This document shows positions 1-36,032 of a stretch of DNA of 36,032 nt, piece by piece. Below the pieces are notes generated by a model, which ran no database searches, was not told where the DNA came from, and saw nothing but the letters and a program-made list of their open reading frames with translations. Source of the DNA: Minisyncoccota bacterium (lineage in GTDB: Bacteria > Patescibacteriota > Minisyncoccia > UBA6257 > JAKLIH01); contig JAQVPP010000002.1 in the NCBI GenBank assembly GCA_028702045.1, positions 1-36,032 of the forward strand. Reading direction: 5' to 3'. Each line of letters begins with the position of its first letter. Within the stretch, counting starts at the first letter, position 1. The translations under genes were made by a program, and so were the position numbers.

Positions 1-1344
1 GATAATGAAGAAATATATATTTTATTTAATCAAGACAAAAAGGGAGTATATAAAACTGGAAATACTTTAGAAATAATATATAACCTAGAGGAAAATAAAA
101 TTCACTCCATTAATCAACCAAAATTAAGTTTTTTTAATAAACTTAAAAATTATTTATTTGCTTCTTTTAGTATGATAGAAAAATTAAGTAATTTCTTAGG
201 AGCACCAATTGGCTTTACTCCAGAAAATGGCGTTGTTCAGGTTTATGATAACGGAGAAATTTTTAGATATTTAAATAACCCATTAGAATCTTCAGACACA
301 ACCAATTCTGATAATATTATCGTCAGACCAGATAAGACAGAGGTTTTAAAAACATTAGACTATTATTTGCCAGTTGAATTAAATATATCTAGTCCACATT
401 TAAGATATCTAGAGTATGGTATTGGAAATAGTTTTGTTGCCAACACTTATGATTTTAGTGTGCCTCAAAACCACAAGTACGCCCAAACATATTATTTAGA
501 AGACTTTCACGATGTAGACGAGAACCCAAGTGGACGCCCAAGTAGTAATGTTTTTTGATGAAAGAATAATGCTTGGCATTTTACAGAAAAAGGCTATACT
601 GCTGAATACAGTACATTAGCAATAAATAAATATATTAAAGAAAATCCTTGCACAGGCATAAAGCAAATTCCTTTTTATGTAATGTATTTAGAATGTCCAC
701 ATATTTCAGCACAAAGCTTTAGCGATAAAATATATGAAATTAAAAGTACTTGCTGCAGTGATTGATATAGATTTTTAAATGAAGATATCAGTAAAGCAAA
801 TCTTTATTCTGATCCTTGATATTTTGATGATAATTTAGTAAAAGACTCTATATCGCAAATAGGAGCAGATACCAGAAAGGATGATGCAATGTGCATAACG
901 CGTTCTCCCGTATCAAATTCATCCACAGCAGCTAGTGATGGCTATCAATATGAAGGAGAATATGGCAAGTGTGTACGCCACAGGGCAGAAAGGTGAATAA
1001 GCACAAACTATTGCACCTGGAAAAGAGAAATAGTTCCAGTAAATATAGATTGCAAGTATACACCTATTACAAAAGAATATATTACCACAACAACCAAAGG
1101 TATTTTATATCATGATAAATATATTTGGAAGTGTGACAACCTTACCAAGAAGTGTTACATAACTGAATCTGGAAATTATTTATCCAGAGAACAATGTGAA
1201 GAATATTGTCAAAAAGATTTTTTAGATAATTCAAATCTTTACTCTTTTGGATCAAATTCTCACTACACAAAGCAAGTTAATTTACAAATTTTAAATCAAG
1301 ATGGAAAAGTTTTTGAAAAAGTTTTTCATATTTTGCAAGATTAA
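1..1344 (+). CDS. C-terminal part of a Cys-rich secreted/surface protein, function unknown (5' end lies outside the window)
   Basis: Hand translation shows frame 1 open from nt 1 to TAA at 1342-1344 when the five in-frame TGA (556, 559, 763, 817, 994) are read as Trp. The track ORF 172-558 is only a fragment. It carries a 4-Cys module, WKCDNLTKKCYITESGNYLSREQCEEYC (1126-1212), also present in the giant pilin downstream. Confidence 0.6.
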
Positions 1345-1346
1345 AA

Positions 1347-1375
1347 TTGACAAACAACTTTTTATCTTTTAAAAT
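1347..1375 (+). promoter_or_regulatory. sigma70-type promoter upstream of pilB
   Basis: TTGACA (1347-1352), a 17-nt spacer, then TAAAAT (1370-1375), about 20 nt upstream of the pilB ATG. Confidence 0.5.
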
Positions 1376-1396
1376 TAATATATTAAATAAAAAACA

Positions 1397-3106
1397 ATGG
1401 GATTATCTCTTCAAATTTTAAAACCAATTTTATTAGAAAGTAAACTAATTAATGAACAAGAATTCAACGATGCATTAGACATATCAAAAAGAACTGGACA
1501 AGATGTTGCTGATCTACTTATTTCTCAAGGTTACTTAACTAAAGAATATTTAACTGAGCTAATATCTCTGTATCTTAAAATACCAAAAATAAAATTAAAG
1601 GGTAGATCAATTGATCCAAAATATCTAAACATGCTTACCGAGCAAATAGCTCGCTCTAAAAAAGCAGTTGTGTTTGGTGAAGAGGGTATGCACTTGCAAG
1701 TTGCTTTAGTTGATCCATCTAACTTAGATTCTGTTCGTTTTTTAGAAAGTTATCTTAATAGGCCAGTCAAAGTATATATTACTACAGAAGAAGAGTTGCG
1801 AGAAGTATTTTCATATTACAGACAACAACTTACTGAAAAATTTAAATCAATTACAGAAAAAAATGTTAAAGAAGCAGCCAAGCTAAAGAGTCTATCTCCT
1901 GATAAAGCTGCCGTAGAATTACCAATAGTTTCTTTAGTAGATACTCTTATTGAATATGCTGCATCATTAAATGCAACTGATATCCATATTGAAATTATGG
2001 CTGATTTTGTCTTAATTCGTTTTAGAATAGATGGTCTTCTAAAGGAAATAATCACATTACCAAAAGAAACCCATCCAGCTATATTAGCTAGAGTTAAGAT
2101 TATGGCTAATATGAAAATTGATGAGCATCAGCGTCCACAAGATAGTAGGTTTAAGTTTAAGCAAGGCGATGATGTCTTTGATGTTCGTGTGTCTGTCTTA
2201 CCTACATATTTTGGAGAAAAGATTAACATGCGTTTGCTTTTAGGAGCCTTAAAGCCTCTAAGTTTATTTGAGCTTGGTATGAATGAGAAAGTTGCAGAAA
2301 CAGTTGTGGCTAATATTAAAAGAACTTACGGTATGATACTTGTTACAGGTCCTACTGGTTCTGGTAAAACCACTACCCTGTATTCTATTTTAAGTATTTT
2401 AAATAAACCAGAAGTAAATATTGTTACTGTAGAAAATCCAGTTGAGTATGAATTAAAGTATATCAATCAAGTTAATGTTAATCCTCAAGCTGATTTAACA
2501 TTTGCCACATCTCTTAGATCTATTTTGCGTCAGGATCCTGATATTATCATGGTCGGAGAAATCCGTGACTCAGAAACCGCCAATATTGCAATTAATGCCG
2601 CACTTACTGGACATTTGGTTTTATCTACTCTTCATACCAACGATGCTGCTACAGCTATACCTCGTTTAATTGATTTAGGTGTTCCTCCTTTTTTAGTTTC
2701 AGCTACTGTTAATTTAATTATTGCTCAAAGACTTGTCAGAAGGATTTGCAAAGACTGCGTAGCTAGTTATGATATTACTCCAGAAGTTAGCAAATCAATT
2801 CTTAATCAATTACAGGCTATAGATGAAAATCACACAGAGGCAGATGTACCTACTTTATTATATAAAGGACTTGGTTGTTCTTCTTGTGGAGGCAAAGGGT
2901 CCAAAGGAAGAGTAGGTATTTATGAAGTTTTAAATGTTTCTGATGACATGAGAGGGTTAATTCAGGAAGATAATTTTTCTTTAGAAAAATTAAGAAACCT
3001 ATCTAGAACAGAAGGCATGAAAGTTTTATTTGAGAATGGATTAAAAAAAGCAGAACTAGGATTAATTTCTTTAGAAGAATTGTTTAGGGTTGTACGAGAA
3101 AGTTAA
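1397..3106 (+). CDS. pilB: Type IV pilus / type II secretion assembly ATPase (PilB/GspE family)
   Basis: Walker A GPTGSGKTT, Asp box NIVTVENPVEY, Walker B DPDIIMVGEIRD, His box TGHLVLSTLHTND, and a tetracysteine cluster CKDC...CSSCGG. The N-terminal domain is T2SSE_N-like. Confidence 0.93.
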   Translation: MGLSLQILKPILLESKLINEQEFNDALDISKRTGQDVADLLISQGYLTKEYLTELISLYLKIPKIKLKGRSIDPKYLNMLTEQIARSKKAVVFGEEGMHLQVALVDPSNLDSVRFLESYLNRPVKVYITTEEELREVFSYYRQQLTEKFKSITEKNVKEAAKLKSLSPDKAAVELPIVSLVDTLIEYAASLNATDIHIEIMADFVLIRFRIDGLLKEIITLPKETHPAILARVKIMANMKIDEHQRPQDSRFKFKQGDDVFDVRVSVLPTYFGEKINMRLLLGALKPLSLFELGMNEKVAETVVANIKRTYGMILVTGPTGSGKTTTLYSILSILNKPEVNIVTVENPVEYELKYINQVNVNPQADLTFATSLRSILRQDPDIIMVGEIRDSETANIAINAALTGHLVLSTLHTNDAATAIPRLIDLGVPPFLVSATVNLIIAQRLVRRICKDCVASYDITPEVSKSILNQLQAIDENHTEADVPTLLYKGLGCSSCGGKGSKGRVGIYEVLNVSDDMRGLIQEDNFSLEKLRNLSRTEGMKVLFENGLKKAELGLISLEELFRVVRES

Positions 3107-3116
3107 AAAAATAAAT

Positions 3117-4325
3117 ATGTTATTTCACTACAAAGCATTTAATCAAAATAATATTCTAGTAGAAGGAGAGATAGAGATGAACACAAAGCAAGAAGTGTTA
3201 ACTTTTTTATATAACCAAAACTTAAAGCCAATTAATATCAAGACTCTTGAAAAAAAGTTTGAGCTAAAGAACCTTGAGATTTTTGCTAAAAAAATTACTC
3301 TTAAGGATAAAGTTTTTTTATTCAAATACTTGGCCTTGATGTTAAGCGTAGGTACAGACTTGGTTGCAGCCATGAGAATATTATTAAGTGATTATACAAC
3401 AGGTCCAATACATGAGTTCTTACTTGAAGTAAAGAATAATCTTGAAAAAGGTTTACCTTTTAGTTTAGCCTTTGAGCAAAATCCTACTCAATTTTCTTTA
3501 ATTACAGCTAACCTAATCAAGGCAGGAGAAAAGTCAGGTAACTTACAAGAGGTTTTTGAGAAATTATCATATACCCTTGAGAAAAATTCAGACTTGCAGA
3601 CAAAAGTTAAATCATCTCTTAGTTATCCAATTATTTTAATTGTTATGTGCGTAGTTTTAGTCTATGCTTTACTTGTTTTTATTTTTCCTCAAATGGGATC
3701 TATTTTTAAGAAAAATGATATGGAAATCCCAGCCTTAACAAAATTCATGATGACCTTATCTGATTTTTTAAATGCTAACATGGTAGTTGTTACTATTTTG
3801 ATGATTCTAGTCCCTATAATATTATTCATATATTTTTCCAAAACTAGTTCAGGTAAAAAGACATTAAACACTATTGTTAATTTTGTAAAACCAATTAGGA
3901 TTTTACTTGAAAAAATTATCTTACAAAGATTATGTTCTACTCTTGCATCTTTGATTAAGTCTGGTATGCCTATTATTACAGCTTTGCAGATTACAAGTAA
4001 TACGCTAGGTAATATACGCTATGAGGAAGCCATGAAAAGAATTGTTTTAAAAATTACTCGCGGTACATCTATTGGAGAATCATTTAGAGCTGAGCCTGTT
4101 TTTCCAAGTAGTTTGGTTAACTTGATTTCTATTGGAGAAAAGGCAGGAAGTACATATAATATATTAATTACTTTAGCTGACTTTTATGAAAAAGAAATTG
4201 ACGCATCACTTAAGTCTTTGGTTTCTTTAATTGAGCCTACCATCCTTATCTTTATGGGAGTTATGGTAGGAGGTATTGCTATATCGGTCGTCATGCCAAT
4301 GTATAAAATAGTAGGAACATTCTAA
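3117..4325 (+). CDS. pilC: Type IV pilus platform protein (PilC/GspF family)
   Basis: Polytopic membrane protein with two GspF-type repeats. The N-terminus MLFHYKAFNQNNILVEGEIE... is typical of PilC. I prefer ATG 3117 over the TTG at 3090 used by the ORF track. The stop overlaps the next ATG (TAATG). Confidence 0.88.
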   Translation: MLFHYKAFNQNNILVEGEIEMNTKQEVLTFLYNQNLKPINIKTLEKKFELKNLEIFAKKITLKDKVFLFKYLALMLSVGTDLVAAMRILLSDYTTGPIHEFLLEVKNNLEKGLPFSLAFEQNPTQFSLITANLIKAGEKSGNLQEVFEKLSYTLEKNSDLQTKVKSSLSYPIILIVMCVVLVYALLVFIFPQMGSIFKKNDMEIPALTKFMMTLSDFLNANMVVVTILMILVPIILFIYFSKTSSGKKTLNTIVNFVKPIRILLEKIILQRLCSTLASLIKSGMPIITALQITSNTLGNIRYEEAMKRIVLKITRGTSIGESFRAEPVFPSSLVNLISIGEKAGSTYNILITLADFYEKEIDASLKSLVSLIEPTILIFMGVMVGGIAISVVMPMYKIVGTF

Positions 4326-4990
4326 TGAAAAAAGCATTTACACTTGTAGAAATGACAATTACAGTAATTATCTTAGCCCTTATTATCACGGGTACTTTTA
4401 CATTACTCTTTAAACCAATGAGTGAATTTTATTTAAAAACTCAAACTGAAAACTTTGAAGAATATTTTGCCTTTATTCAAAACAAGAATTTAGCTGAAGC
4501 TAATCCAAATATTAATTCACACATGACCTTAAAAATAGATAATTCTAGTTCTGATTATTATCAAGCTAAACTTATTTCAACTATAGGATCAACTACTACT
4601 GATATTGATGTTTTAGATATTCAGTACTTTGCTGGCTTTAGCCAATTAATCAAACCAGCTCCAAGTAGTAGTATGACATTTAACTTGTGTTCTGGACTAT
4701 CTAATAATAGTAAAATTAATTTCTGTGATTCATCAAATGATATAATATGTGATGAAGATTATTATTTTGCCATAAAAAGTAAAATGTTTGACATTTTTTA
4801 TGTGGTTTTAATTAAGACTCCGTCACAAAAAGCTTGTACTCCAGAAGTATATATTAATAAAATTGATGATTTTTCAGTTTGTTCTGAATCAGTTAGTTAT
4901 GTTTGTGGAACAGATGGGTTGACATACAAAAATGAGTGCTATGCAGGGTTAAATAAGTTAGAAGTAGATTATGAAGGAGAATGTGAATAA
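4325..4990 (+). CDS. Type IV pilin-like protein with a C-terminal Kazal-like domain
   Basis: Class III signal and N-terminal helix MKKA|FTLVEMTITVIILALIITG, with Glu at +5. The C-terminus CSESVSYVCGTDGLTYKNEC....GEC fits the Kazal core C-x7-C-x6-Y-x3-C. Confidence 0.8.
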   Translation: MKKAFTLVEMTITVIILALIITGTFTLLFKPMSEFYLKTQTENFEEYFAFIQNKNLAEANPNINSHMTLKIDNSSSDYYQAKLISTIGSTTTDIDVLDIQYFAGFSQLIKPAPSSSMTFNLCSGLSNNSKINFCDSSNDIICDEDYYFAIKSKMFDIFYVVLIKTPSQKACTPEVYINKIDDFSVCSESVSYVCGTDGLTYKNECYAGLNKLEVDYEGECE

Positions 4991-7823
4991 AATAAAAAAA
5001 AGTTTTTCATTAGTTGAGATTTTAATCGCAATGATGATTTTAATTATTTTTATAGTACCCATAGCTACCATATCACTCATGTCAAAAGAAAAAATAGCTG
5101 ATTTTGAAGATCAAAAACAATTATATAATTTAGCTGTTGCTCAAATTGATGCTAATAATAAAAATATAGATACTGATGGTTTTGATTTTGAAAATCATCA
5201 CTTAAACTTTAACTACCTATATGTACCAGGATCTTCAAATAGGTTGGCTCAATATGATAGAATAGGTTTTTTAAATGATGATCCTGTTCTTAACTTAACT
5301 TTTGATGGTGCTCAAAAAATAGATGATGTATATTATGTTCGTGATGACAAGGCTACTATTAAAGGAACCTTATCAGTTACCGCTTCATCAACTACAACAG
5401 ACACTACAGGATATGAAACAGATTTTGACGATACTTCTGTAATTGAGAAACATCTAAATGAACCACAACCATATTATATAGGAGGAGGAGATAATTGTAT
5501 GTCAGGTCATTGCTTATTATTCTATGGAGATGTAACAAATGAAATAGCTTCTTTAGTTTCATTTAATAATGTTATTGGATGAGATCAATTTAATGAAGTT
5601 TCTTTTGAATTTTATTTCAAGCTTGACGAGGTTAGGGAAATGGAAATAGTTGGTAAAAATAATTTATCAATAGGAGTCGCCTCTAATTCAAAACCATATT
5701 TCACATCTCAGTTTGTTACTTATGAGGAGGAAGGTACAACTACAACCAATGTTATAGGGACTAGTACAACCACCCTATTAGAACCAATTTTTTCTACTCA
5801 AACAATTCTTGGTACAACCACCTTGCAAGCAGATACTTGATATCACTATGTAGCTACCTATGACTATATTAGTGAAAAATTAAATATATATCTTAATGGT
5901 GTTTTAGAAAATTCAGAAGCTTATTCTGGTGATTCTGATTTTAGTTTAATCTCAGGTGACTTTTCTTTTGGAGGAACTCCAACCAAAGCATTCAAAGGTG
6001 TTCTTGATGAAGCTAAAGTATATGATTATTCATTAAGTGGTGAAGAAGTTAAGAACCACTACAACTTTTATGAAAGAAATAAAGGACTTCTTCTATACGA
6101 ATCATTTGATAGAGGGTTTAATTCTGCAAGTTATGAAGTTTTGCCTGAGATTGGTGATATATCCAGTGATGGACTACTAACAGGAGCCTTATTTAAGCTA
6201 TATAACACTAATTTATCTGATCATCAACAATTTGGTCATGCTATTGATTTTAACCACATTACAGGCACAGTCTATCCTACTTATGGTATTTTAGAATCAT
6301 CAGAAAGTAGTTTTAATTCAAAAATATCTACAAATGAATGATCACGTATGTTTGATTCTGATAATATTACTATGGAAATGTGAATCAGACCTACTACCAT
6401 AGATAATACTAAAAAAGGGTTAATCTCTAGAGGATATGAGAGTGGTGGATCATATACTATTAGCCAAGAAGCATATATCCAAAATGGATATTTGAATTTT
6501 TCAGTCAAAACAGATCAAGAAACAAATACCCTTACAGGCCTAACTCAGTTGCAGGCAGATACTTGATATTTAGTTTCTTTCTCATATGATGGACAAAGTC
6601 AAGCGATATATATCAATGGTGTACTTGATCAAGAAACCGTAACCACAGGAGATCTAATAGGGGGCCCATCTGGAGATACTATTTTTTACTTAGGTTACTC
6701 AGGGCAAAATTCTGAATATTTTTATGGAGATATTGATGAGCTTAGGATATATAATAGAGGATTAAGTGGCGATGATATTATCAACAGATTTAAAAAAGCA
6801 TACTCATATTATAAAAATGTACATCCAGTTTATCAAGTAGAGGATAGTTCCAAATATTTTTTCCAGAGAAACATGTTAACAGGATGTGTGGTCACAAATG
6901 ATGACACTTGTTCCCCTATATCTAATCCAATTGCTGGTATTTTTCACAACCCAGCCTTACTCTATACAATAGATATTGCTAGATATGGCGATGGAGTTGA
7001 TTTAGATTATTTAGATTTTCATCAAATTATTACAAACCATAGTTCTTTTGGTGTGCTTATGTATGAGAATGTACACTGGTCTAAAAACTCTAATTACTCA
7101 GGAACAGTATTAAACTATAAGTGTGATGCATCCAGTCAAAGGTGTTTTCCACGTCATGATGGACAATTTACAGATCTTGCAGAGTGTAATAGTTTATGTG
7201 CAGCATCCCAGTCAGCCGAGCCACCATATACATGTTCAGGATCTCAGTGTGTCATAGCCGATCCACAGCCAGGGCAGTATTCTACAGTAGAGGAATGTGT
7301 CACCGCTTGTGATATTGCTCCTCCAGCAGGTGCTAATGCATGTACTAATTTCTATTACTCAGATGATAATAAGGTTTGCCAGTCTGAAAATATTTCTTTT
7401 GGCGATTCTATTAGTTTAAACAATGTTGGACTTAGTGGATATATGATTTCTCAAACTTTTGATTTTGAAAAACCAACATCTATTTTAGCCTATTCGCTTG
7501 AGGGAGAGTTTGATCCTGCTCTTGTAAAAATTCAATTTGATTGTAAAGATGATATTGTTGATGCCTCAGGAGTAATGATTAGTGATGAAGCGTGACTATA
7601 TACAGGATCTTCAGATTATGAAACATGTTCAATTTCGTCATTCTACTCTATTGCACTAGAGAATTTTGGTGGGGCAGGTAATGCTAAGTTCCACCCAATC
7701 AAATCATGTTGAAGAACATATGAGAGGGAACCATCTTTTTGTAAATTTATGAGATTTAAATTAATCTTTGAGCCAGGTGCTGGTAGTATATCTAAGGTAG
7801 TATTTAGGATAGCTCAACAATAA
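4971..7823 (+). CDS. Giant pilin-like protein (~950 aa): pilin N-terminus, two LamG/concanavalin-like domains and Cys-rich C-terminal modules
   Basis: Track ORFs 4971-5582, 5640-5840, 6141-6341 and 6873-7595 share one frame. They are joined only by TGA (5580, 5838, 6339, 6381, 6564, 7593, 7710), with no TAA/TAG until 7821-7823. The N-terminus is KKS|FSLVEILIAMMILIIF. The start may instead be GTG 4983, preceded by AAGGAG. LamG signatures occur twice: LQADTWYHYVATYDY...FKGVLDEAKVYDYSLSGEEV and LQADTWYLVSFSYDG...FYGDIDELRIYNRGLSGDDI. Confidence 0.8.
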
Positions 7824-7880: not shown

Positions 7881-8864
7881 TTACTTTAAATCCAAAGTGC
7901 GACAGTTAGTATTAAAAAAGACTTCATTTGGTGTTTTGTAATTAAAACACTTTCTTGGTCTGTTATTTAAAAGGTTTTGTGCTTTTTTAACTTTAGTTAT
8001 TGTTAGTGTATCATATTTTGTTTTTTTAGGAAATCAATCTCTAATTAAACCATTAGTATTTTCATTAGTACCTCTTTGTTGTGATGAATAAGTATCGGCA
8101 AAATATACATTAATATCCAAGTCTTTTTCAATTAATTCGTAGTCACTAAATTCTTTTCCATTATCATATGTTATTGATTTAATATTAATATTTTTAAGAG
8201 ATTTAATTGTTTGTTTATATATGGTTTCTTTTTCATGGTTACTTAACAAATCTATTATTGTATATCTTGTTTTTCTATCAACATAAGTTAATAAACAAGC
8301 TGATCTAGGATGAAGGACCATAGTATCTCCTTCAAAATCACCAATCCTTAATCTTTTATCAATAACTTTTGGTCTATCATGTATAGATTTCTTATTACTG
8401 TCCTTTTCCCTTGCTTTAATGCGTATATTAGTCCCATATCTTCTGCGAAACTTATTTTTCTTATGTCTTAGGTATTGTCATAATTCTTTACGTGTATATA
8501 TGTACTTATATATCGTAGGATAAGATATATATCATTTATTATTGGTTTCTATATTCCACCTATTAGCTATCTGATCAGGAGATCATTTAAGCTTTAAATG
8601 TTTTAAAATATATGTCTCTAGTGTTTTATTGTTTAATATCTTATCCAGCCTATAATTGGCTTTTAGTCTTTTATTAACATATCTTTTCTTTGATAAACTA
8701 CTGTTATATTTTCCTTCCTTAATCCCTCTTTTAATTTCTCTATGAATAGAACTTCTGTGCTTATTAAACATTTTTGCTATCTCTGTTACCTTAGGGGGAT
8801 TAGCTAAATTTAAAAGATACTGTAGACTATCTTTTTGTTCTGTGGTAATATGTGTATAGGTCAT
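7881..8864 (-). CDS. IS30-family DDE transposase (327 aa, intact under TGA=Trp)
   Basis: Track ORFs 8583-8864(-) and 8034-8321(-) plus the gaps form one frame with four TGA and a TAA stop at 7881-7883. It has an N-terminal HTH. IS30 hallmarks are present: SPDQIANRW, GDFEGDT, TYDNGKEF, QQRGTNENTNGLIRDWFPK and NNRPRKCFNYKTPNEVF. Confidence 0.88.
7885..7918. repeat. Left terminal inverted repeat of the IS30-like element
   Basis: tttaaatccaaagtgcgacagttagtattaaaaa matches the reverse complement of 8922-8957 (tttaaactcgaagtgcgacactttagtaatttaaaaa) with a few mismatches and indels. Confidence 0.65.
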
Positions 8865-8921
8865 AAATTTTAGTTTAAAGTTTTTGTTAATTCATAAATA
8901 CTTTACCAAATTTATGGCCTT

Positions 8922-8957
8922 TTTTAAATTACTAAAGTGTCGCACTTCGAGTTTAAA
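8922..8957. repeat. Right terminal inverted repeat of the IS30-like element
   Basis: See the left IR. The shared core is AAGTGCGACA, flanked by TTTAAA at the outer tip. Confidence 0.65.
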
Positions 8958-10419: not shown

Positions 10420-12108
10420 ATGAATTTTAAAAAAATAAAAGCAATTACTTTGGTTGAACTTTTAATATATATTGCACTTAGTATTATAGTAAGTTTAATT
10501 TTATTACAAGCAACTAATTTAATTTTAAATAAAAAAAATATTAATGATGAAATTAAAGAAAATGTAGAATCAATAGAAGCAAGAAAAGCATCTGCATTAT
10601 TATCTCAATATGTTAAAAAACCAATTACAGCAATACCACCATTTATAAATTTACCTCCGTCTCCACCCAATACAGATCCTAGTATAAGTATCCCCATATT
10701 TAACCCATGAGGAGAGTTTGGGCCCATTGATGTAATTATTGGTCCATCTACTGGGAATGGATGTTATTGCATATATTGTACAGTAGCAATGTATGGAAAT
10801 CCACCTGGTGATATTTTTTTACCAACAGCCAAGCAAAATACACCAAAAATTATAGAAACTTGTTATGCGTCATCTAACTTAGTAATAGATTCTTCTCAGT
10901 CTAGCCAAGGGCTTAAAAATGGTATAGCTTGATCAGATTGTCCCCCTATGGAAGATCAGTCTCATGATTTAAAATTAACAAATTTAATAGCTGGAGCCAA
11001 AAATACATCATCTACAGAAGAAGCAATTGAATATTTAGAACAAGAGAAAAAAACATTAGGGTGTTATGAATCTAAAGTTAAAGAAGAAAGATTTGAAGAT
11101 AATATTTCAGTATGTGATTCTATTGATCAAAAAATTCAAGAAATACTACATCTAGATAAAGTTATTGATGATGAATGTCCCTATTGTGTAAATATGAAAA
11201 TTATTTGAATTCCTTGGCCAAACCCACCAAAACTTCCTGGCGGACCAGGACAAGGGAAAGGAGAAGAGTATTATGTTTCAAGTATTGGCACTTCTCCAAT
11301 AGACAATTTTAATAGATTTGCATGATCAAGTAATGTTGGATGAATAGATTTTTCAGGAGTAAGAACAAGTAAAAATAGTTTTGATTTAAATGGTTTTGCC
11401 ACAGTAGTAAGTAATAATAGTAAAATTTCTTTAAACTGCGAAAACACAAATTCTTGTAAAAACTCAGATTACAAAGTTAGTGTTAGTGATCAAGGTGTTT
11501 TGCATGGGCATGCCTGGGGGGGAGACACTCTAGGCTGAATTAGTTTTAATTGTCAAGAAGGGGGTCAAGATGGCGAAAATATATGTGATACATCTCTTTA
11601 CGGAGTATATATAGAACCACAAACAGCCAAGTTTAATGGTTACGCTTGATCAGAAAATATTGGCTGAATTAGTTTTGACTGTTCAACGGGGGGTACTGGA
11701 ATGACAAATGTCTGTAGTTCCTCTGACTATGGAGTACAAATGTCATATTTAAAAGAAGGATATATTACTTTAGGATTTGACGAAGGCTCATACACTATTC
11801 CTTTAGAGGGGTATAACAAATATGATATAGACTCAGTTTCCAACACTACAGCTACAAATGATGGAGTATTTACTTTAACTAGTATTTCAGGTAGTAACTT
11901 TATGACAGGTGCCTTAGTATACTTATATAATAAGGACTACGGTAATGTATACTCAATCAATACACCTACATACAACTCAAATGAGATGATATCAAATATT
12001 CAATTTGATTTAGAGGATAAGCCTACAGGATATTACTCAGCTATATTTGTAAATCCTAATGGCGATTATGGAATTTTAAACAATGCAATCAATGTCACAT
12101 CAAACTAA
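10420..12108 (+). CDS. Pilin-like protein (562 aa) with Pro-rich linkers, three AWSxNxGWIxF repeats and a C-terminal Ig-like (IPT/TIG-like) region
   Basis: Track ORFs 10420-10710, 10948-11208 and 11701-12108 share a frame joined by TGA (10708, 10930, 11206, 11323, 11341, 11536, 11647, 11665). The N-terminus is MNFKKIKA|ITLVELLIYIALSIIVSL. The C-terminal stretch FTLTSISGSNFMTGALVYLYN...GYYSAIFVNPNGDYGILNNAINV resembles IPT/TIG, but that call is weak. Confidence 0.78.
11308..11715 (+). repeat. Three tandem coding repeats with the motif A-W-S/G-x-N/D-x-G-W-I-x-F
   Basis: FNRFAWSSNVGWIDF (11308-11352), HGHAWGGDTLGWISFNC...C (11500-11586) and FNGYAWSENIGWISFDC...C (11632-11715). At DNA level, ggctgaattagtttt recurs at 11533 and 11662. 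Most of the Trp codons are TGA. Confidence 0.8.
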
Positions 12109-12731: not shown

Positions 12732-14360
12732 ATGAAAAAAATTTCCTTTTTAAATAAATTTAAAAAATACTTATCGCCACAAGAAAATGCTGGTGCTTTT
12801 GAAGTAAATGATAAAACAATCAAGTGTTTTTATTTTGAACCAAATACATATAAGATATCATATTATGATATTGAGCAATTAAAGCCTGGCACAATAGAAA
12901 AAGGGGAAATAAAGAATTTACCAGAATTTGAAAAAACTTTATTAAAAATCAAAAATAAAAGAAAAAAGTTTTTTAAAAACAATCCATATATTATCTTATC
13001 TCTTCCAGCTGAAAACTTTTTCACAACAGTCATAGAGGTTCCTAAAGATACACTCAACTTTTCTAATTTAGAAGATACTGTTAAGTTAAATATAGAGAGT
13101 ATAACTCCTATCCCTTTAGAGGAAGGATATCTAGACTGGGAGTCAATAGAAGAAGAGGGTTCTGAAAATCTATCTATCTTTACTGGTATTGGGAAAAAGT
13201 CATCTATTGATATTTATCTTTCTTGTTTTTATAAAAATGGATTCAAAGTATTGGCTGTAGAAAAGCCAGCCTTAGGATTATCTAGGTTTGTTTTTAATTA
13301 TTCAAATATAAAAGTTCCATACTTACTCGTAAACATAGATAGAGATGGAGTAGATTTTTTAATAGCTGATGATAAAAAAATATATTTCTATGATTTTGAT
13401 GAGTGATCAAAAATTACTCAATTTCCTATTCAACAATTTTTAAATACCAGTGACCTTACTGCATACTATACAAGAAAAATAAATCAAATACTTAGTCATC
13501 ATGAAAATAAGAATCATATCAAGGTTCAAGGTTTTTATTTTTTCAGCTTAGTTCCTAATATCAAGCAATATTCCATTACCTTTATCCAAAACACATTCAA
13601 ACTACAGTTTATTCAAAATCAACTTCCAGGTAATATTCAAAAATTATCAGAAGAGTGAAACGGGGTAATAGGATCAGCTTTTAGAGGACTTATCCCAAGG
13701 GCCAAAGATACTATCATAAGCATGATGGCCATAGGCACAGAAGAAGAGTATCAGCAAACTAAATTGTTCAGATTCGTATATATGTGAGCTCGTTTTATTT
13801 CTATTTTATTTTTGTCTAGTGCAATAATCTTTTGATCACTAAATACTTTTGTTTTCCAGAAATTAAACAAGCCTCAAGAAATAACTCAAACATCACAACA
13901 ATCTAAGCTATCTCAAGATAAGGTTGCCCTAGAGGAACAGCTAGAGTTATTTAATTACTATGTTCCAAGATTAATCAATGTATACAAGGAGCAACCAAAG
14001 TACAGTGAGTATTTTTCTGATATACACTTACTAGCTAGTCAAAACAATATTGATATTTTAGAAATATATTATGGAGGAAATATTACCAATATTACCATCC
14101 AAGCCAAATCAACTTCAAAAAAATCAATAACAAATTTTAAAAAGGATCTAGAAACTTTAGAGAATTTTACCTATGTATCCTCACCAGTAGAGTCCATATC
14201 AAATGAAAATGGAAAATACTTCTTTACAATTAAGATAAGCTATGGAAAAGATGCACCAATAGTACAATCTTCTCAAGAAATTAGTCCAACCAGCACCATA
14301 GATATACAGACAACCACTACAAAAAGCAAAGAAACAACAATATTAACCTTACCAGAATAA
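12732..14360 (+). CDS. pilM: PilM-PilN(-PilO-like) fusion protein (542 aa)
   Basis: Track ORF 12732-13406 continues in frame through TGA at 13404, 13656, 13785 and 13833 to TAA at 14358-14360. The N-terminal half is PilM/actin-like (LSLPAENFFTTVIEVPK, LDWESI, VLAVEKPALGLSRF, LLVNIDRDGVDFLI). A TM follows (WARFISILFLSSAIIFWSLNTFVF), then a coiled, PilN/O-like periplasmic tail. Confidence 0.65.
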
Positions 14361-17932: not shown

Positions 17933-21560
<3,628 letters not shown>

Positions 21561-21577
<17 letters not shown>

Positions 21578-22770: not shown

Positions 22771-23268
22771 ATGCAATATAGTAACAAAGTTTTAAAATTT
22801 TTTAAAAGACCTAAACACTCTGGACAAATGAAAAATCCAGACACAATAGGTACAGCAGGTAGCTTACACTGTGGTGACACTATGGCTATCTATCTTAAAA
22901 TTGCAAAAAATAAAAAGAATCAGGAATTTATTAAGGATGTCAAATACAAGACTTTTGGATGTGTAGCGGCCATAGCATCTTCAGAAGCTTTAGCTAGAAT
23001 AATTAAAAAGAAAACTTTAAAAGAATGCCTTGAGTTAAAAAATAATGATCTTGTTTATGAACTACATGGTCTTCCAGATATTAAGATTCATTGCTCATTA
23101 ATTGGTATAGATGCTTTAACTGATGCAATATATCTTTATTATTCTAAAAATCACCCAGAACTAATTACCAAAGAACTTCAGGATAAAGAGGATGAGATTA
23201 ACAGGAAAAAACAAATCTTAGAGACAAGATATAAAGAATGATATGATAAAGAAATGAATGATTTTTAA
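22771..23268 (+). CDS. nifU: Fe-S cluster scaffold protein (NifU N-terminal / IscU type)
   Basis: Three cluster-ligand Cys contexts: SLHCGD, KTFGCVAAIASS and KIHCS. It reads through TGA at 23239 to TAA at 23266-23268. Confidence 0.88.
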
Positions 23269-25723: not shown

Positions 25724-25728
25724 CTATT

Positions 25729-26976: not shown

Positions 26977-26977
26977 A

Positions 26978-27745: not shown

Positions 27746-29404
27746 ATGAAAAATATATTAATTGCTACAGCTTGACCATATGTAAATGGAGATTTGCATA
27801 TAGGACATACAGGAGGCTACTTACTTCCAGCAGATATTATTGCTCGCTATCACAGATTAATTAAGAATAATGTTTGTGTTGTTTCTGGTGCAGACTGTCA
27901 TGGCACGCCAGTAACAGTAGAAGCAGAGAAAACTAATATATCTCCACAAGAGATAGTAGACAAGTATTACCCAACTCACTTAGAGATATTTGATAAGTTA
28001 AATATTAATTTTGATATATATACTAAAACTACTACAGATAATCATAAGCAAACAGTCCAGGATGTTTTCTTAACTTTACTTAACAAGGGATACATATTCA
28101 AACAATCATCTGTTCAGTTTTTTAGTCAAAAAGAAAATAAATTCTTACCAGATAGATATGTAAAAGGTATATGTCCATTTTGTAATCAAGAAACTAGTGC
28201 TGATCAATGTGATAACTGCAACAAAATTATAGAAGCAAGTGAACTAAAAGATCCAATAAGTAAATTAACCAATAGTCCTGTTATTTTAAAAGAAACAGAG
28301 CACTATTACATGGACTGATCTAAGGCTGAAGATTTTCTTAAACAGTATTTTAATGAATACAAAGATAATTGGAAAGACTGGGTCCAGTCTGAAACAAAGG
28401 CTTGACTTGATCAAGGGCTAAAGCCTTGACCAATCACAAGAGATATGGACTGAGGCATAGAGATTCCCAAAAATGATATTCCAGAAGACCTTCTAATAGA
28501 TAACATAGAAAACAAGAGAATATATGTTTGATTTGAGGCTGTTATTGGCTATCTTTCAGCTACCAAAGAATTACTAAAAGATAAGTATACTGATTTTTGA
28601 TTTAGCAAAAATTGTAAGCAATACTATTTCATGGGTAAGGATAATTTAGTCTTCCACACATTATTCTGGCCAGCACAACTTCATTTATATAACCCAGATA
28701 TCAATTTACCTGATGTTTTGAGTGTTAATAATTTCCTAAACCTTGAGAATAAGAAGTTTTCCAAAAGCAAAGGGATTACTATTAGCAATATATACATGGT
28801 AGATACTTATGGCCTAGACCAAACTCGCTTTTATTTAGCTTCTATTTGTCCTGAGGCAAATGATGCTAACTTTATGTGAAAAGATTTTCAGCAAAAAATT
28901 AATGATGTCCTTAACTCAAATTTTGGCAACCTGGTTAACAGAATTTTAAAGTTGTTTAAGGATTACGAAATACCTAATATACCTGCCAGCGATGAAGTAA
29001 TTAATAAAATAAAAGAAACAAAAGATAAGGTATGTACTTCTCTTGAAAAAGTTGAAATTAAAAATTATGTTAATAATTTTTGTTCATTAATTGATTTTTC
29101 AAATAAATATTTATCAATTAAGGCTCCATGGAAAAATAAAGATAATATTGATGAATTTAATCAAACAATGATAGATTGTTTCTATCTTTTAGTTGCTATT
29201 GATATTTTTATCAAACCTCTATTAATTAAAAGTTCAGAAAAAATAGAACAAATGTTAAATATACAAATAGATTATTGAAAAGATGATATTATCTCTCAAA
29301 TTAAAGATAATATTAAACAAATTAAAAGAACAGATGACATTCAACCTATTTTTTCAAAAATAGAAGATGATCAAATTAATCAAGAAATTGATAAATTAAA
29401 TTAA
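27746..29404 (+). CDS. metG: Methionine--tRNA ligase (552 aa)
   Basis: ATG 27746. The HIGH motif is LHIGH and the KMSKS motif is KFSKSKG, with a Cys knuckle CPFC...CDNC. Three track ORFs are joined by about nine TGA, several at Trp positions typical of MetRS (AW-PY, DW-GIEIP, YVW-FEA). Confidence 0.93.
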
Positions 29405-29462: not shown

Positions 29463-29741
29463 ATGAGTCAAACAAAATTTTCAAAAAAAATTCCATTAAC
29501 TCTAGAAAATATAGAAAAAATACCCAACAACAAGCCAGGTATTTACCGTATCTTAAATAAAAAAGAAGATATTATTTTATTTTGGAAAATAAAAAACGGA
29601 GGAATGAAAGAGGATATATGGAACCATAAAGGAACAAACAATGAAGGTGTCTTTTTCCAATACAAAATAGCTCTTAATAATAAAGAGGCTGACAAAATGC
29701 AACAAGAAGAACTAAAAAAATGAAAACCTGTTTTTGAATAA
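29463..29741 (+). CDS. Small GIY-YIG-like domain protein (92 aa), apparently degenerate
   Basis: KPGIYRILNKKEDIILFWK..KEDIWNH....FFQYKIALNNKEADKMQQEELKKW-KPVFE follows the GIY-(x10)-YIG ... W..H ... E..lI..ykP layout, but YIG is replaced by LFW/FWK and the catalytic Arg is not evident. It reads through TGA 29721 to TAA 29739-29741. Confidence 0.45.
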
Positions 29742-30172: not shown

Positions 30173-31264
30173 ATGAACACTGATTACAGAAATTGAATAG
30201 AAATAAACCAACAAAACCTTCTTCATAATTTTCATATTTTTAAAAAATTATCCAAAAATAAAATAGGAGGAGTTATTAAGTCTAACGCATATGGGCATGG
30301 ATTTTTAGAAATTGCCAATATCTTAAGCAAAGCAAATATTGATTATTTTATAGTAGATTCTATAGCTGAAGCTGTTTTTTTAAGAAAAAATAAAATTCAA
30401 AAACCTATTCTTATTTTAGGTTATACAAAAAAAGATTCTTTTAAAAAAGCTTCTATAAATAATATTGAATTAACTATTTCTTCTTTTGAAAATTTAACTA
30501 ATGCAATTAATTTTTCAAAAAAACATAAACTAAATATTCATATCAAACTAGATACTGGTATGCATAGACAAGGTTTTCAGGAAACAGATATACTTAAGTT
30601 AAAAGAAATTTTAAATACAAAACCAAATAATCTTAATATTACAGGTATATATTCTCATTTACTCAAGGCTAGCTCTAAAAAAATTTCTATAAAACAAAAC
30701 AATCTTTTTAAAAAAATGTTAAACATCCTTAATCTTAAAGATATATTAACTCATCTCATAGCCACAGAGGCCACTTTTCTTTATCCTAATATGAGATATG
30801 ACATGACACGTATTGGCCTTGGCCTATATGGAATATATCCTTCTCTTGAAAAAAAGAAAAAATTTGAAAAAGTTTTTAAATTAAAACCAGTACTTTCTTG
30901 GCATACTATTATTTCTGAAATTAAATATGTGAAAAAAGGAGAGACTATAGGGTACAAAGGCACTTATACATTAACAAGAGATTCAAAAATAGGCATATGT
31001 CCCATAGGTTACTGGCATGGATATACCAGAAAATTATCTAACTTGGGTTATGTGTTAGTTAATAATAAAAAAGCTAAAATACTAGGTAATATCTCTATGG
31101 ACATGATTTGTATTGATCTTACTAATATTGATTGCTCAGTTAATGATACAGTAACCCTAATTAATGAAGAAATATCTATTGAAAAATTATCAAAACTATC
31201 AGATAACTATACTTATGAATTTGCAACAAGGCTTAATCCAAAAATTAAAAAAATAATTAAGTAA
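30173..31264 (+). CDS. alr: Alanine racemase (363 aa)
   Basis: ATG 30173 gives MNTDYRNW-IEINQ...GGVIKSNAYGHGF, the PLP-Lys motif. The C-terminal ISMDMICIDLT motif is present. The track ORF 30560-31264 is the 3' part. Confidence 0.88.
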
Positions 31265-31266
31265 AT

Positions 31267-31959
31267 ATGTGAAAAAAACCAAAACAACATGTTTTAGTTA
31301 TTGCCAATACAATAGATGAGGAATTTGATTATCTAATGTTTTTATTAAAAGATATGGATTTTTTTAATCAATATGGATATGAAGTTGCACTTCCTGATCA
31401 TCCATTTTTTTTAAATATTTCTAAAAACCCTTCTTTATTAAAATCTTTAAACCTAGAAGAAGTCAAAAATATATTCAAAAAAGAAATATATGACCCAACT
31501 TTTTTTGAAAAAGGAATAAAAAAAATTAATGAAAATATTGAATTAATTGAAAAAGCTATCCAGAGAATGAAAAAGTTAAAAAAATGAAAATTCAAAATTT
31601 TTAAAAAATATAAAGTGAAATTAACAGCATTTGGTGCTGGTGGATCATATATTTTTCAGTGTGGTATCGTGCTAATAACATTAAATGAAAAGGGAGAATT
31701 TTATCAAAACCCATGAAATACTATTATTCATGAAATAGTTCATATTGGTATTGAAAAAAGTTTAGTAAATAAATTTAAATTAACGCACACTGAAACAGAA
31801 ACAATAGTTGATGCAATTTGTGCAAATTATTTAGGCGACATGTTAATTGACTATAAGCTTGAAGGTTTATCAGACAAAAAATTATTTAACCTTATTAATA
31901 AAGACAATCTTATGGAACTTCCTCGTATTATTAAAGAATATAAAAAACTAAAAATATAA
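31267..31959 (+). CDS. Hypothetical protein (230 aa) with an HExxH metallopeptidase-like motif
   Basis: ATG 31267, with TGA at 31270, 31585 and 31714 read as Trp, and TAA at 31957-31959. It contains NTIIHEIVHIGIEKS. Confidence 0.55.
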
Positions 31960-32394: not shown

Positions 32395-32721
32395 ATGAAA
32401 GAAATAACAAACAATGAGTTTGAAACTGAAGTTTTAAATTCAAGTGAAATGGTTTTAGTTGACTTCTGGGCACCATGATGTGGTCCATGTCAAATGATTA
32501 CTCCAATTCTAGAACAACTAAGCCAAGAAAATATAATCAAAGTAGTTAAGGTCAATGTAGATACTGCAGATAATCAAGTTTTAGCTGCTAAATATAAAGT
32601 ATCCAGCATCCCTAATATGTTCATTTTTAAAAATGGAGAAATAGTAAAACAACTATTAGGTTATCATAGTCTTGATCAAATAAAACAAGAAATAGAATCT
32701 ATCAATGAAGCAAATAATTAA
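32395..32721 (+). CDS. trxA: Thioredoxin (108 aa)
   Basis: VDFWAP-W-CGPCQM active site, in which the WCGPC Trp is the TGA at 32476-32478. The track ORF 32494-32721 is the 3' part. Confidence 0.93.
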
Positions 32722-34414
32722 AACAGAATTATTAAATATTTGTAACACTCTAAAAGAAACTGAATTTAAAAATTTAAATACAGACGCTATTTCTTTTGAA
32801 ATAAATTATGGAACAAGTTTTGGTGATTACTCATCCAATATTTGTTTTTCTATTTCAAAACAAATAAATATACCTCCTAAAGTTGTAGCAGAAAAAATAA
32901 TTAACTTATTTAGTCAAAAACAATATTTTTCTGAAGTTTTTGAAAAAAATAACTTCTTAAATTTTAATATTAATAGGAATTTTTTAAACAAATATATATT
33001 AAGTTTCCCAAAAAATAAAATATCTTATCCAAAAACAAATAAAAAAATACAAGTTGAGTTTGTTTCAGCTAATCCAACAGGCCCACTTACCATAGCTAAT
33101 GCTCGTGGAGCCTTCTATGGTAATGCTTTAGCTAATATTTTGAAATTTACAGGGAATGATGTTACTAAAGAGTATTATGTAAATGACAAAGGTAATCAGA
33201 TTTTTCATTTGGGTGTTACTCTTTTAAAAATACTAAACATCGATCCACAAGTTGAGTACAGCGAAGATAATTTATACAAAGGAGATCACTTAACTGAATT
33301 AGCTAAAGAAGTAAAAGATGCTGCGCTAAAATATGAGAAAAAATTAAAAGATATTCCAGATCTTGATAAAAATACTAAAAGAACATTAGTTGAAATAACA
33401 ATTGGACGCTTAGCAGCAAATATTAATTTAGAAAAAATTAAAAAAGCACTTAATAACCAATGCAATATTCATTTTGATAACTATTTTTGTGAAAGTTTTT
33501 TATGATCAACAGATACTTTTAGTTTCCTTCTTAAACAAAAACTTATTTACGAAAAAGATAAAGCCTTGTTTTTAAAAACAACTCTATTTAATGATGACAA
33601 GGATAGAGTAGTTATGAGAAGTGATAATACTCATACATACTTTTTCACTGATATTGTTTACCATTTAAATAAGTTTGGTGCTAATATCAAAACTCTTTCA
33701 GATAGTTTTCCTAATTCATACAAGAAATTTGTTAACAGAAAATTTGATAAAGTTATAGACATATTTGGAGCAGATCATTACTCAGAAGCAAATCAACTAA
33801 AGACAATGATGGAGTACTTTAAGTCCAAACAAGTTATTGACCTACACTCCAATCTTGATATTCTTTTAATGCAGTTCTTAACTTTACAAGGAGGAGAGAA
33901 GATGTCTAAAAGAAAAGGTAATTTCAATACTCTAGAGGATTTCGTAAACACTGCTTCTCTTGATGCAGCCAACTTCTTTATTTTAGAAAGAAGTATAGAC
34001 AAGCATCTTATATTTGATATGAATTTAGCTAAAGAACAATCTGAAAAAAATCCAGTCTTCTATACTCAATATGCATATGCACGTATATGTAGTATATTAA
34101 AAAAGAATTTTTTCAAATTTAATATCTATAAGAATCTAGATATATTACAAGAACCAGAGGAAATAAAATTAATGAAATTAATTATCAAATTACCTGATTT
34201 AATTGAAGAAGTTTCCAATAATTACCAGATTCATTTATTAACCTCATACTTAATTGAATTATCTAAAACATTCCATGCATTTTATACTAATCACAATATA
34301 TTAAAATCTAATTTCAAACTAAAACAAGCTCGCCTTAATTTGATTAAGTCAGTGAAGACTGCTTTCGAGATTTGTTTTAATTTAATCAACATAAAACCTA
34401 AACAAAAAATGTAA
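32705..34414 (+). CDS. argS: Arginine--tRNA ligase (569 aa)
   Basis: VEFVSANPTGPLTIANARG (HIGH-region variant), GEKMSKRKG (KMSKS) and a C-terminal DALR-type anticodon-binding helix region. Two track ORFs are joined by TGA at 33503. Confidence 0.92.
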
Positions 34415-34416
34415 TA

Positions 34417-36032
34417 ATGAAAGAAAAATTTGTCATAATAGATGGTAATGCCTTAGTTCACAGGGCTTACCACGCCATTACATCACTAGTTTCCCCACAA
34501 GGCAAACCAGTTAACGCTGTATATGGTTTTTTTATGATACTTTTTTCAGCTCTTAAAGAATTAAAGCCAAAATATATAGTTGCTACTTTTGATGTAGCTA
34601 AAAAAACTTTTAGGCACGAGGTTTTTAAGGACTACAAGGCCACTAGAATCAGACAGCCAGACAATCTATATGACCAAATACCTTTAGTTAAGGAATTACT
34701 TAATAAACTAAATATCCCTATTTATGAACAAGAGGGTTATGAGGCTGATGATGTAATAGGATCACTGGTTAATCAAATTAATGGTGACCTAGATATTACT
34801 ATAGTTACTGGAGATCTAGACTTACTTCAACTTTTAAAAGAAAATGTGACTATCTGAACTTTAAAAAAAGGAATCAAAGATAGTATTATCTATGACATAC
34901 CTAAATTCAAGGAAAGATACAACATAGAAGTAGAACAGTTTGTTGATTATAAAGGAATCAAAGGAGATCCATCAGACAATATACCTGGAGTAAAGGGACT
35001 TGGTGACATTTCTGCTCAAAAATTATTAAAAAAACATTATTCAATTGAAAATATCATCAAAGAAGGAGATCAGATTGTAAATGATCCGCTTATTCCAGAT
35101 AAGGAAAAAAAGATTTATCTTAAATTTTTAGAACATAAAGATGAAGCCCTGTTCTCTAAACAATTATCAACAATTATTACCAATCTTGACCTTAATTTTA
35201 AATTAAATGATTCTTTATTTTTTATAGAAAACCCACAAGAAGCTATGTCTGCTTTTAGGCAATTTGGTTTTATTTCATTAATTAAACAGATTCAGGAAAA
35301 CTTCATCAATACGCAGCCTACCCAATCTTCACAAAATACAAGTTTTTCAGAAATTTCTTCTCTTGAGGAAATTAGTGACTCTTCTGATACCATATATTGT
35401 TACCTAAACAGTAGTGGTAAGTATTTAGAAAGAACTTTTGACTATTTCTATTTTTTGATTAATGATGTTTATTATAAAATAAAAAAAGAAAATGTTTCTT
35501 CTTTTGATTTACAAAACTTATTTAAAAATAAAATTATTATCACTTTTGATGCTAAAGTTCTTTATCAGGAATATGAGTTAAACGATTTTGAATTTGAGGA
35601 TTTAAAAATATATGAGTGATTAATTAATAGTGATAAGAGTAGTTTTGATCTAAGTTACTTAAGTAAAAAATATACTAGTACATTAAGTAATAATATAGAA
35701 GATATATTTATTAATATTAATGATATTTATGAACATATCAAGCAAGAAATAAACAAATCAAATCTTCAAGATATTTATGATTTTATAGATAGTCCATTAA
35801 TTAAAGTATTAGCTTTAATGGAAAAAAATGGCATATCTCTTGATATTATGAAATTAAATGAGCTAATTGATAAAATTACTCCGCAAATAGAAGAAACTAA
35901 AAAAGAAATTTTCAAATTATCTAATAAAGAAATCAACCTAAAGTCACCTAAACAAGTTTCAGAACTATTGTTTCAGGACTTAAAGATACCAATGTCAAAG
36001 TTAAAAAAGACTAAAACCAAACAAATCTCAAC
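34417..36032 (+). CDS. polA: DNA polymerase I, N-terminal part (3' end outside the window)
   Basis: 5'-nuclease motifs IIDGNALVHRAYHA, GYEADDVIGSL and IKGDPSDNIPGVKGLG. It reads through TGA at 34855 and 35617. The polymerase domain begins at ...INLKSPKQVSELLFQDLKIP. Confidence 0.92.

Follow-up and report, generated by a model that had tools for sequence, protein, structure and literature searches.

Evidence that UGA encodes tryptophan in a low-GC Minisyncoccia genome related to the Patescibacteriota family JAKLIH01

Introduction

Natural changes to the genetic code are rare in bacteria. The described system closest to the one treated here is the Patescibacteriota family JAKLIH01, for which reassignment of UGA to tryptophan was reported in Nucleic Acids Research in April 2026, where 150-303 Pfam columns supported it in Codetta, UGA made up 0% of stops, release factor 2 (RF2, the product of prfB) was absent in 4/4 genomes, and a tRNA(UCA) was present in 2/4; the genes of these genomes had to be re-called by the authors, and in the sister families of JAKLIH01 UGA makes up 4-10% of stops (PMC13092985). 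Here we analyze a stretch of 36,032 bases (contig JAQVPP010000002.1, positions 1 to 36,032; the window, below, means this whole stretch), in which an earlier reading made from the sequence alone had proposed that in-frame TGA codons specify tryptophan in an organism that is not a Mollicute.

The gTranslate preprint of May 2026 lists 12 recoded genomes of JAKLIH01, 10 of the genus GCA-2747955, and one further member of the Minisyncoccia, and finds that most of the recoded genomes possess tRNA-Trp(UCA) and lack prfB (10.64898/2026.05.24.727570). Among bacteria of the candidate phyla radiation (CPR), UGA = Gly was the only such change in the 2021 Codetta survey, and a 2025-26 preprint on Eggerthellaceae names three phyla with UGA = Trp. 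Across the literature the UGA-to-Trp change has been reported in five phyla, Patescibacteriota included, and no phylum before Patescibacteriota was known to use three tables (4, 11, and 25). The code change itself was thus already published in 2026; what the window contributes is one more case of it, in a new, deeper-branching member. Our reading, to which we give a probability of about 0.9, is that the window derives from the chromosome of an ultra-small, low-GC member of the Patescibacteria, class Minisyncoccia (formerly Paceibacteria/Parcubacteria), sister to JAKLIH01 (order UBA6257), in which UGA has changed genome-wide from a stop to a tryptophan codon, as in table 4.

Results and Discussion

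TGA as a sense codon

The window has a GC content of 28.4%. With TAA and TAG as the sole stops, open reading frames (ORFs) of 1218, 1097, and 952 amino acids are obtained, and trimming to start codons leaves 27 genes that account for 95.8% of the window. Under table 11 the longest ORF is 572 amino acids, and rpoB, rpoC, metS, and other genes are fragmented. This re-calling had been proposed as a check on the sequence-only reading and came out in its favor: high coding density and long ORFs obtained only with TGA as sense support TGA as a sense codon. The practical consequence is that table-11 gene callers shred such genomes, the rpoB of the window becoming five pieces, so that completeness and taxonomy are mis-estimated.

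The claim that several dozen in-frame TGA codons lie in essential genes holds, as 57 were counted in 16 genes, rpoB, rpoC, metS, and trxA among them, and the five positions singled out earlier (15199, 16744, and 17695 in rpoB, 20666 in rpoC, and 32476 in trxA) are all in-frame TGA. With 28 in-frame TGG codons, the ratio of TGA to TGG is 2:1. No in-frame TAA or TAG occurs inside the genes of the window, complete genes terminate with TAA in 26/26 cases, and RpoB, RpoC, and MetRS match their homologues in length, with 98-100% coverage of the homologues.

Residues opposite TGA

The residues found opposite TGA were tallied in MAFFT alignments, with X placed at each TGA, of RpoB, RpoC, and MetRS against their best 120 matches from a search of 5.8 billion proteins; recoded relatives were excluded, and 113-120 homologues per protein were counted. 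Trp is the majority residue at 15/19 TGA columns of the three proteins but at only 1.1% of alignment columns overall (P ~1e-26). A preponderance of Gly at these columns was one outcome that the earlier reading had named as telling against it, and Gly is the majority residue at 0/19 of them, compared with 7% of all alignment columns.

All four TGA columns of RpoB have a Trp majority (in order, W 120/120; W 66, with Y 53; W 76, with F 43; and W 120/120), and PDB alignments show W at all three of the TGA sites that they cover. The same four sites carry TGA or TGG across 13 relatives and TGA throughout in two related loci (L066 and L067), while a standard-code Patescibacteria locus (L001) has TGG, TAT, TGG, and TGG. 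Three of the RpoC columns have a Trp majority (W 115/117, 117/117, and 64/117) and three do not: amino acid 99 (R 110/117, K 7/117), amino acid 459 (L/Y/F), and amino acid 912 (N 94/117). In MetRS the Trp majority extends to 8/9 TGA columns, with W in 78-113 of 113 homologues and in at least 106/113 at seven of the eight, and the remaining column (28427, amino acid 228) is R in 113/113 homologues, which are Patescibacteria-type enzymes. TGG likewise stands at invariant Trp columns, namely RpoC 448 and MetRS 209, 212, 308, and 462. The tallies for these three proteins agree with the earlier reading of TGA as Trp.

Smaller proteins add to this picture to differing degrees. In the thioredoxin TrxA, where the sequence-only reading had also placed a TGA-encoded Trp, the PDB alignments set the window motif FWAPxCGPC opposite FWAPWCGPC, and the two ADT-W-Y sites that it had noticed in a pilin-like LamG protein were found again as repeated LQADT-W-Y sites with TGA at 5838 and 6564. 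The argS TGA falls in a variable stretch of the PDB ArgRS alignment and is uninformative on the residue. For the alanine racemase TGA, the sole PDB alignment reaching the site has Tyr opposite it, and the alignments otherwise begin downstream.

Synonymy of TGA and TGG was assessed by pairing the codons of the window with those of orthologues in eight related loci. The codon opposite a window TGA is TGA in 105 cases, TGG in 24, and TAT in 11, and is never GGN, and a window TGG stands opposite TGA 21 times and TGG 5 times; UGA and UGG thus interchange between orthologues. The two also interchange inside one protein, the pilin-like g10384, where one copy of an internal repeat has TGG at a site at which the two others have TGA. 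Taken together, TGA at conserved Trp columns and the interchange of TGA with TGG support a code in which TGA is a Trp codon synonymous with TGG, corresponding to table 4 rather than to table 25 or to a stop, as the earlier reading had proposed on seeing that TGG was used as well.

Columns without a Trp majority

One TGA had been put forward as doubtful, that of rpoC 20666 (amino acid 912), which the earlier reading had set opposite a Gly of E. coli and B. subtilis. The codon is an in-frame TGA as claimed, and the column is variable (N 94, R 13, K 4, G 2, D 1), with Gly in 2/117 homologues. Every relative that covers the site has TGA there.

The column of RpoC amino acid 99 (18227) lies within the motif VRRERMGHIEL and is Arg in 110/117 homologues and Lys in the other 7. 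The codon is TGA in the window and in 11/11 JAKLIH01-group relatives, and the preceding Glu is now Lys. At amino acids 99 and 912 the standard-code locus L001 has AGA and GAC, respectively. MetRS amino acid 228 is encoded by CGA in the closest relative of the window, L074, and is Trp in E. coli-type MetRS (GLQQWDISRD). The TGA codons at RpoC 99 and MetRS 228 would be explained as CGA-to-TGA transitions giving Arg-to-Trp replacement, a change made possible by a code in which TGA is Trp.

Placement of the window

The affiliation of the host was addressed through RpoB, RpoC, and MetRS. Among the 120 listed matches of RpoB, the best are annotated as Paceibacterota, Minisyncoccia, or Pacebacteria (Patescibacteria) at 50-53% identity, with a distinct top group of 13 at 57-59%; Mycoplasmataceae RpoB is 35-43% identical to that of the window. 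The top group falls into two parts, group A (P0004-P0013), with 81-100% mutual RpoB identity, and group B (P0001-P0003), with 74-79% mutual identity and 64-68% identity to group A. None of the group A and B contigs that were looked up yields its database protein under table 11. One member of group A, P0009, comes from GCA_022705625.1, which is JAKLIH01 sp022705625 of family JAKLIH01, order UBA6257, class Minisyncoccia (PMC13092985 Suppl. Table 2).

Neighbour-joining trees of single proteins with 50 bootstraps place the window and groups A and B together in 50/50 replicates for RpoB, and groups A and B without the window in 49/50; the RpoC and MetRS trees unite the window with its nearest group in 50/50 replicates each. 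In these single-gene trees, and at 58-59% RpoB identity, the window branches outside both subgroups of the JAKLIH01 clade. The sequence-only reading had asked for such a phylogeny and had argued against a Mollicute host, which agrees with what was found: the window falls outside the Mycoplasmatales and Entomoplasmatales and is sister to the clade that holds a JAKLIH01 genome, all three proteins grouping with Patescibacteria/Minisyncoccia.

Comparison of the window with JAKLIH01 shows broad agreement. Both read TGA as Trp while retaining TGG, both are low in GC (31% in JAKLIH01 and 28% in the window), and both lack UGA stops, with TAA dominant. The gene order pilB-pilC-pilin-LamG-...-pilM-rpoB-rpoC-nifS-nifU is common to the window and the group A loci, and TGA positions in RpoB and RpoC are shared, including lineage-specific ones, so that the window has both the genome organization of JAKLIH01 and its derived TGA sites (RpoC amino acids 99 and 912). 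The differences are that the RpoB of the window is 58-59% identical to that of JAKLIH01, while the JAKLIH01-like subgroups are 64-68% identical to each other; that TAG stops are absent from the window and L074 (0/34) and make up ~13% in the JAKLIH01 group; and that the pilus locus of the window contains two insertions, an IS30 element and an orphan gene. The genus GCA-2747955, compared here by its published description only, also shows UGA-to-Trp within the Minisyncoccia, mostly with tRNA-Trp(UCA) and without prfB (10.64898/2026.05.24.727570). That genus keeps code-11 members. The best matches of the window are all JAKLIH01-like, and nothing in them points to membership of the genus.

The only close relative found, L074, is an 8.9-kb contig from ENA with 25% GC, 20 TGA, and 4 TGG. 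It is syntenic with positions 23-34 kb of the window, with protein identities of 62-91% (81-91% for housekeeping enzymes). A scan of a genome collection for exact peptide patterns of the window RpoB returned no close relative and mostly AT-rich Mycoplasma and archaeal loci; its best match was L001, at 50% identity. The LysRS of the window, looked up as an exact sequence, matched no record. A scan of metagenomes for TGA at the Trp codon of RpoB GEMEV-W-ALE returned 53 loci, 7 of them group-A-like, 7 group-B-like, and ~30 Mollicutes-like, and none near the window.

Two further observations came from the metagenome contigs. L116 (Ga0210059_1006776, positions 1-6004; 25% GC) carries an rpoB ORF of 1300 amino acids with 8 TGA, including that of GEMEV-W-ALE, and no TGG. 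Its RpoB matches Sungbacteria/Portnoybacteria-type Patescibacteria best (53-54%) and is 43% identical to the window and 49% to JAKLIH01; as it is distant from both, it may represent another recoded lineage. In four short contigs of 58-64% GC (L095, L106, L123, and L126) the invariant Trp codon of RpoB is likewise TGA; sequencing error or a pseudogene may account for this, or the contigs may come from a recoded organism with a GC-rich genome, e.g., Hodgkinia.

The rank of the lineage is a more tentative matter. Judged by sequence, the window may represent a genus or family separate from the JAKLIH01 subgroups. A stronger proposal, which we regard as somewhat short of an even bet, is that the window and L074 together make up a deep-branching lineage, perhaps of family rank, which lies outside the JAKLIH01 genera described so far yet shares their lineage-specific TGA codons, and that this branch is near to a genome with a single stop codon. 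If the window does belong to a deep lineage outside JAKLIH01, UGA-to-Trp in Patescibacteria would be older and broader than the two 2026 reports describe. A deeper sister branch that has the same code and the derived TGA sites helps to date the recoding event, and is also of use as a comparison in tests of codon capture, sister families having only 4-10% UGA stops.

Use of TAG bears on the last part of that proposal. All eight gene ends of L074 are TAA (8/8), giving no TAG among the 34 stops of the window and L074 combined, and the JAKLIH01-group loci have 85 TAA and 13 TAG stops; at their TAG frequency, the probability of 0/34 is ~0.009. TAG may be nearly unused in the branch of the window. 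Reassignment of TAG itself was considered and rejected, as no in-frame TAG occurs and total ORF length barely changes with TAG as sense (32.3 to 35.4 kb).

Decoding, origin, and alternative explanations

Four points weigh against a genome-wide change from stop to Trp in a sister of JAKLIH01. First, the sample is 36 kb only, and rare UGA stops could occur elsewhere in the genome. Second, 4/19 TGA columns are non-Trp in homologues, two of them conserved Arg (RpoC 99 and MetRS 228). Third, the window has no tRNA gene and its 27 genes include no release-factor gene, 36 kb being too small a sample to show prfB loss, and no tRNA-Trp was found in 38 related loci (12 JAKLIH01-group and L074 loci and 26 metagenome loci), which yielded only tRNA-Ser and are rpoB neighbourhoods, where a tRNA-Trp gene is not expected. 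Fourth, the placement comes from single-protein neighbour-joining of AT-rich, fast-evolving sequences, and compositional attraction among low-GC lineages is possible.

By analogy with the JAKLIH01 paper and with table 4 elsewhere, UGA would be read either by a tRNA-Trp(UCA) or by tRNA-Trp(CCA) through wobble or superwobble; RF2 would have been lost, leaving RF1 to terminate at UAA (and UAG); and the change would have come after AT pressure had depleted UGA stops in a small, AT-rich genome (codon capture). The CCA route may be carried further, to a host without any tRNA-Trp(UCA) in which the ordinary tRNA-Trp(CCA) reads UGA through C34-A wobble or through superwobble, its anticodon arm perhaps being modified, and loss of RF2 alone is sufficient. 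The finding of tRNA(UCA) in only 2/4 JAKLIH01 genomes, the existence of code-4 bacteria without it (e.g., Stammera and Zinderia), and its absence from the window and the 38 related loci are all consistent with such a mechanism. Yet the JAKLIH01 genomes without tRNA(UCA) are incomplete metagenome-assembled genomes, the related loci are of the kind described above, and most code-4 bacteria, as well as most of the 22 recoded Minisyncoccia genomes, have tRNA-Trp(UCA). A TGA:TGG ratio of 2:1 would moreover strain a near-cognate mechanism, and we consider decoding by tRNA-Trp(CCA) alone to be unlikely.

As to origin, the reassignment most likely happened once, before the lineage of the window and JAKLIH01 split, because TGA is shared at RpoC sites that are non-Trp in any outgroup (Arg, Asn). 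The alternative is that two sister lineages of low GC, that of the window and JAKLIH01, converged on TGA = Trp, each acquiring it separately. Such a convergence would fit with the RpoB identity of 58-59% between the window and the JAKLIH01 clade, which is little above that between this clade and standard-code outgroups (54-59%), and with the repeated rise of UGA-to-Trp in bacteria; the sister families were already at few UGA stops (4-10%), and gTranslate records recoding in both JAKLIH01 and GCA-2747955, the latter with three code-11 genomes. Against it stand the TGA codons shared at RpoC amino acid 99, where outgroups have Arg or Lys in 117/117 cases, and at amino acid 912, together with 100% support for monophyly and the absence of any standard-code sequence inside the clade among the best 120 matches of the 5.8-billion-protein search. 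We therefore favor the single, pre-split origin and regard an independent gain as improbable.

The other explanations fare far worse. Reading TGA as Gly (table 25), as in the Absconditabacterales and BD1-5 (GTDB class JAEDAM01), has in its favor that the host is a CPR bacterium of low GC, table 25 being known from that group, and that Gly occurs, if rarely, at the rpoC 20666 column. These organisms share with the window the phylum Patescibacteriota, the codon UGA, and low GC, but they belong to another class, and UGA = Gly there is an independent event. With the nearest relatives in the Minisyncoccia rather than JAEDAM01, the invariant W of WCGPC and of GEMEVWALE encoded by TGA, no Gly-majority column, and TGA exchanging with TGG and never with GGN, table 25 has next to nothing left to recommend it.

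The code would be unremarkable if the host were a classical table-4 organism, either a member of the Mycoplasmatales/Entomoplasmatales or an endosymbiont of insects. Low GC and the many Mycoplasmataceae rpoB loci returned by the pattern-based genome scan would suit such a host, and the lineages concerned (Mycoplasmatales/Entomoplasmatales, Hodgkinia, Zinderia, Nasuia, Stammera, Organicella, Pinguicoccus, and the MGR clade of the Eggerthellaceae) share with the window the UGA-to-Trp change of table 4; they have low GC and small genomes, with RF2 lost and tRNA-Trp(UCA) usually present. They belong, however, to other phyla (RpoB identity to Mycoplasma is ~40%), and the Mycoplasmataceae loci reach only 35-43% in RpoB, compared with 50-59% for Patescibacteria. 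The RpoB of the window has the Patescibacteria length of ~1070 amino acids, its pilus locus is syntenic with that of JAKLIH01, and it encodes an alanine racemase, all of which makes a Mollicute or endosymbiont host extremely unlikely. The organism is presumably a CPR episymbiont rather than an intracellular symbiont.

Finally, the view that there is no code change, and that the TGA codons mark pseudogenes, assembly or sequencing errors, programmed read-through, or selenocysteine, can point to in-frame stops being widespread in some bacterial genes in the general literature, but it has almost no chance of being correct given TGA codons spread over 16 genes that include rpoB, rpoC, metS, and trxA with no in-frame TAA or TAG, positions conserved in independently assembled relatives (NCBI, ENA, and JGI), and Trp rather than Cys or Sec opposite them, which is not the pattern of selenocysteine or read-through.

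Gene content of the window

The features of the window are collected in Table 1.

Table 1. Features of the 36,032-base window, with coordinates, strand, and the TGA and TGG codons they contain.
Feature	Coordinates	Strand	Description
Gene of unknown function, 3' part	1..1344	+	447 aa (amino acids); five TGA; intact only with TGA as sense; no Pfam match
pilB (T2SSE ATPase) and pilC (T2SSF platform)	1397..4325	+	Pfam T2SSE 1e-122, T2SSF 4e-49; no TGA or TGG
Pilin-like protein g4307	4325-4990		N_methyl motif; C-terminal Kazal_2 domain, E 1e-5, above gathering score
Pilin-like LamG protein	4971..7823	+	950 aa; seven TGA; Pfam Laminin_G_3 in two stretches (6.5e-41), N_methyl
IS30-family insertion sequence	7885..8957	-	23-nt terminal inverted repeats; Pfam rve, HTH_38; transposase 8864 to 7881
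Pilin-like protein (g10384)	10420..12108	+	562 aa; eight TGA; no Pfam family
PilM-like pilus assembly protein	12732..14360	+	542 aa; four TGA; Pfam PilM_2, 3.7e-8
rpoB	14698..17916	+	1072 aa; TGA at 15199, 16159, 16744, 17695; no TGG
rpoC	17933..21577	+	1214 aa; TGA at 18020, 18227, 18269, 19307, 19583, 20666; two TGG
nifS-like cysteine desulfurase	21561-22766	+	Pfam Aminotran_5; no Trp codon; intact under either code
nifU/iscU-like scaffold gene	22771..23268	+	165 aa; TGA at 23239; Pfam NifU_N 2e-33
Two small ORFs	23311-24146	-	TGG only
lysS	24290-25723	+	Pfam tRNA-synt_2; no Trp codon; intact under either code
serS	25729-26976	+	Pfam tRNA-synt_2b/Seryl_tRNA_N; no Trp codon; intact under either code
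metS	27746..29404	+	552 aa; TGA at 27773, 28316, 28403, 28427, 28451, 28529, 28598, 28877, 29276; four TGG
Small hypothetical protein	29463..29741	+	92 aa; one TGA; 64% identity in L074
Alanine racemase	30173..31264	+	363 aa; Pfam Ala_racemase_N 3e-49, Ala_racemase_C 2e-34; TGA at 30194
Hypothetical protein	31267..31959	+	230 aa; three TGA; no Pfam match
trxA	32395..32721	+	108 aa; active-site motif WCGPC with its Trp encoded by TGA (32476)
argS	32705..34414	+	569 aa; PDB ArgRS match E 5e-54; one TGA, 33503
polA, 5' part	34417..36032, runs off window	+	Pfam 5_3_exonuc_N, 5_3_exonuc, DNA_pol_A; TGA at 34855, 35617

Pfam matches substantiate two of the earlier gene assignments, the alanine racemase (both domains) and the type IV pilus genes (PilB, PilC, the PilM-like protein, and pilin-like proteins with N-methyl motifs); the FtsQ-like label given to one ORF has no Pfam match behind it and is not confirmed. 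The PilM-like gene has syntenic PilM_2 counterparts that lie upstream of rpoB in relatives. The g10384 protein has homologues at 36-38% identity in the same position in JAKLIH01 loci and contains three A-W-(S/G)-x3-G-W-I-(S/D)-F repeats separated by Cys-rich spacers, the copies reading FAxSSNVGxIDF, HAWGGDTLGxISF, and YAxSENIGxISF (x = TGA).

The IS30-family element lies within the type IV pilus locus, and relatives lack it at their syntenic loci. The transposase that it encodes has four in-frame TGA (8585, 8534, 8480, and 8036), which indicates that the element is itself adapted to the altered code. Adjoining it is an orphan ORF of 427 amino acids (9062-10345) with no Pfam match and no counterpart in the loci of relatives. 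This ORF has TGG four times and TGA not at all (P ~0.012 given the 2:1 TGA:TGG ratio) and lies where the GC content of the pilus region is lowest (25.7%); a donor with the standard code may have contributed it recently.

Eight genes contain no Trp codon of either kind, namely those for PilB (569 amino acids), PilC, the pilin-like g4307, g12080, NifS, LysRS, and SerRS, and the FtsQ-like ORF. They sit at 1397-4990, 12083-12694, 21561-22766, and 24290-27739, and read identically under tables 4 and 11. Within this set, the Kazal_2 match of g4307 places a Kazal-type serine-protease-inhibitor domain at the end of a pilin-like protein.

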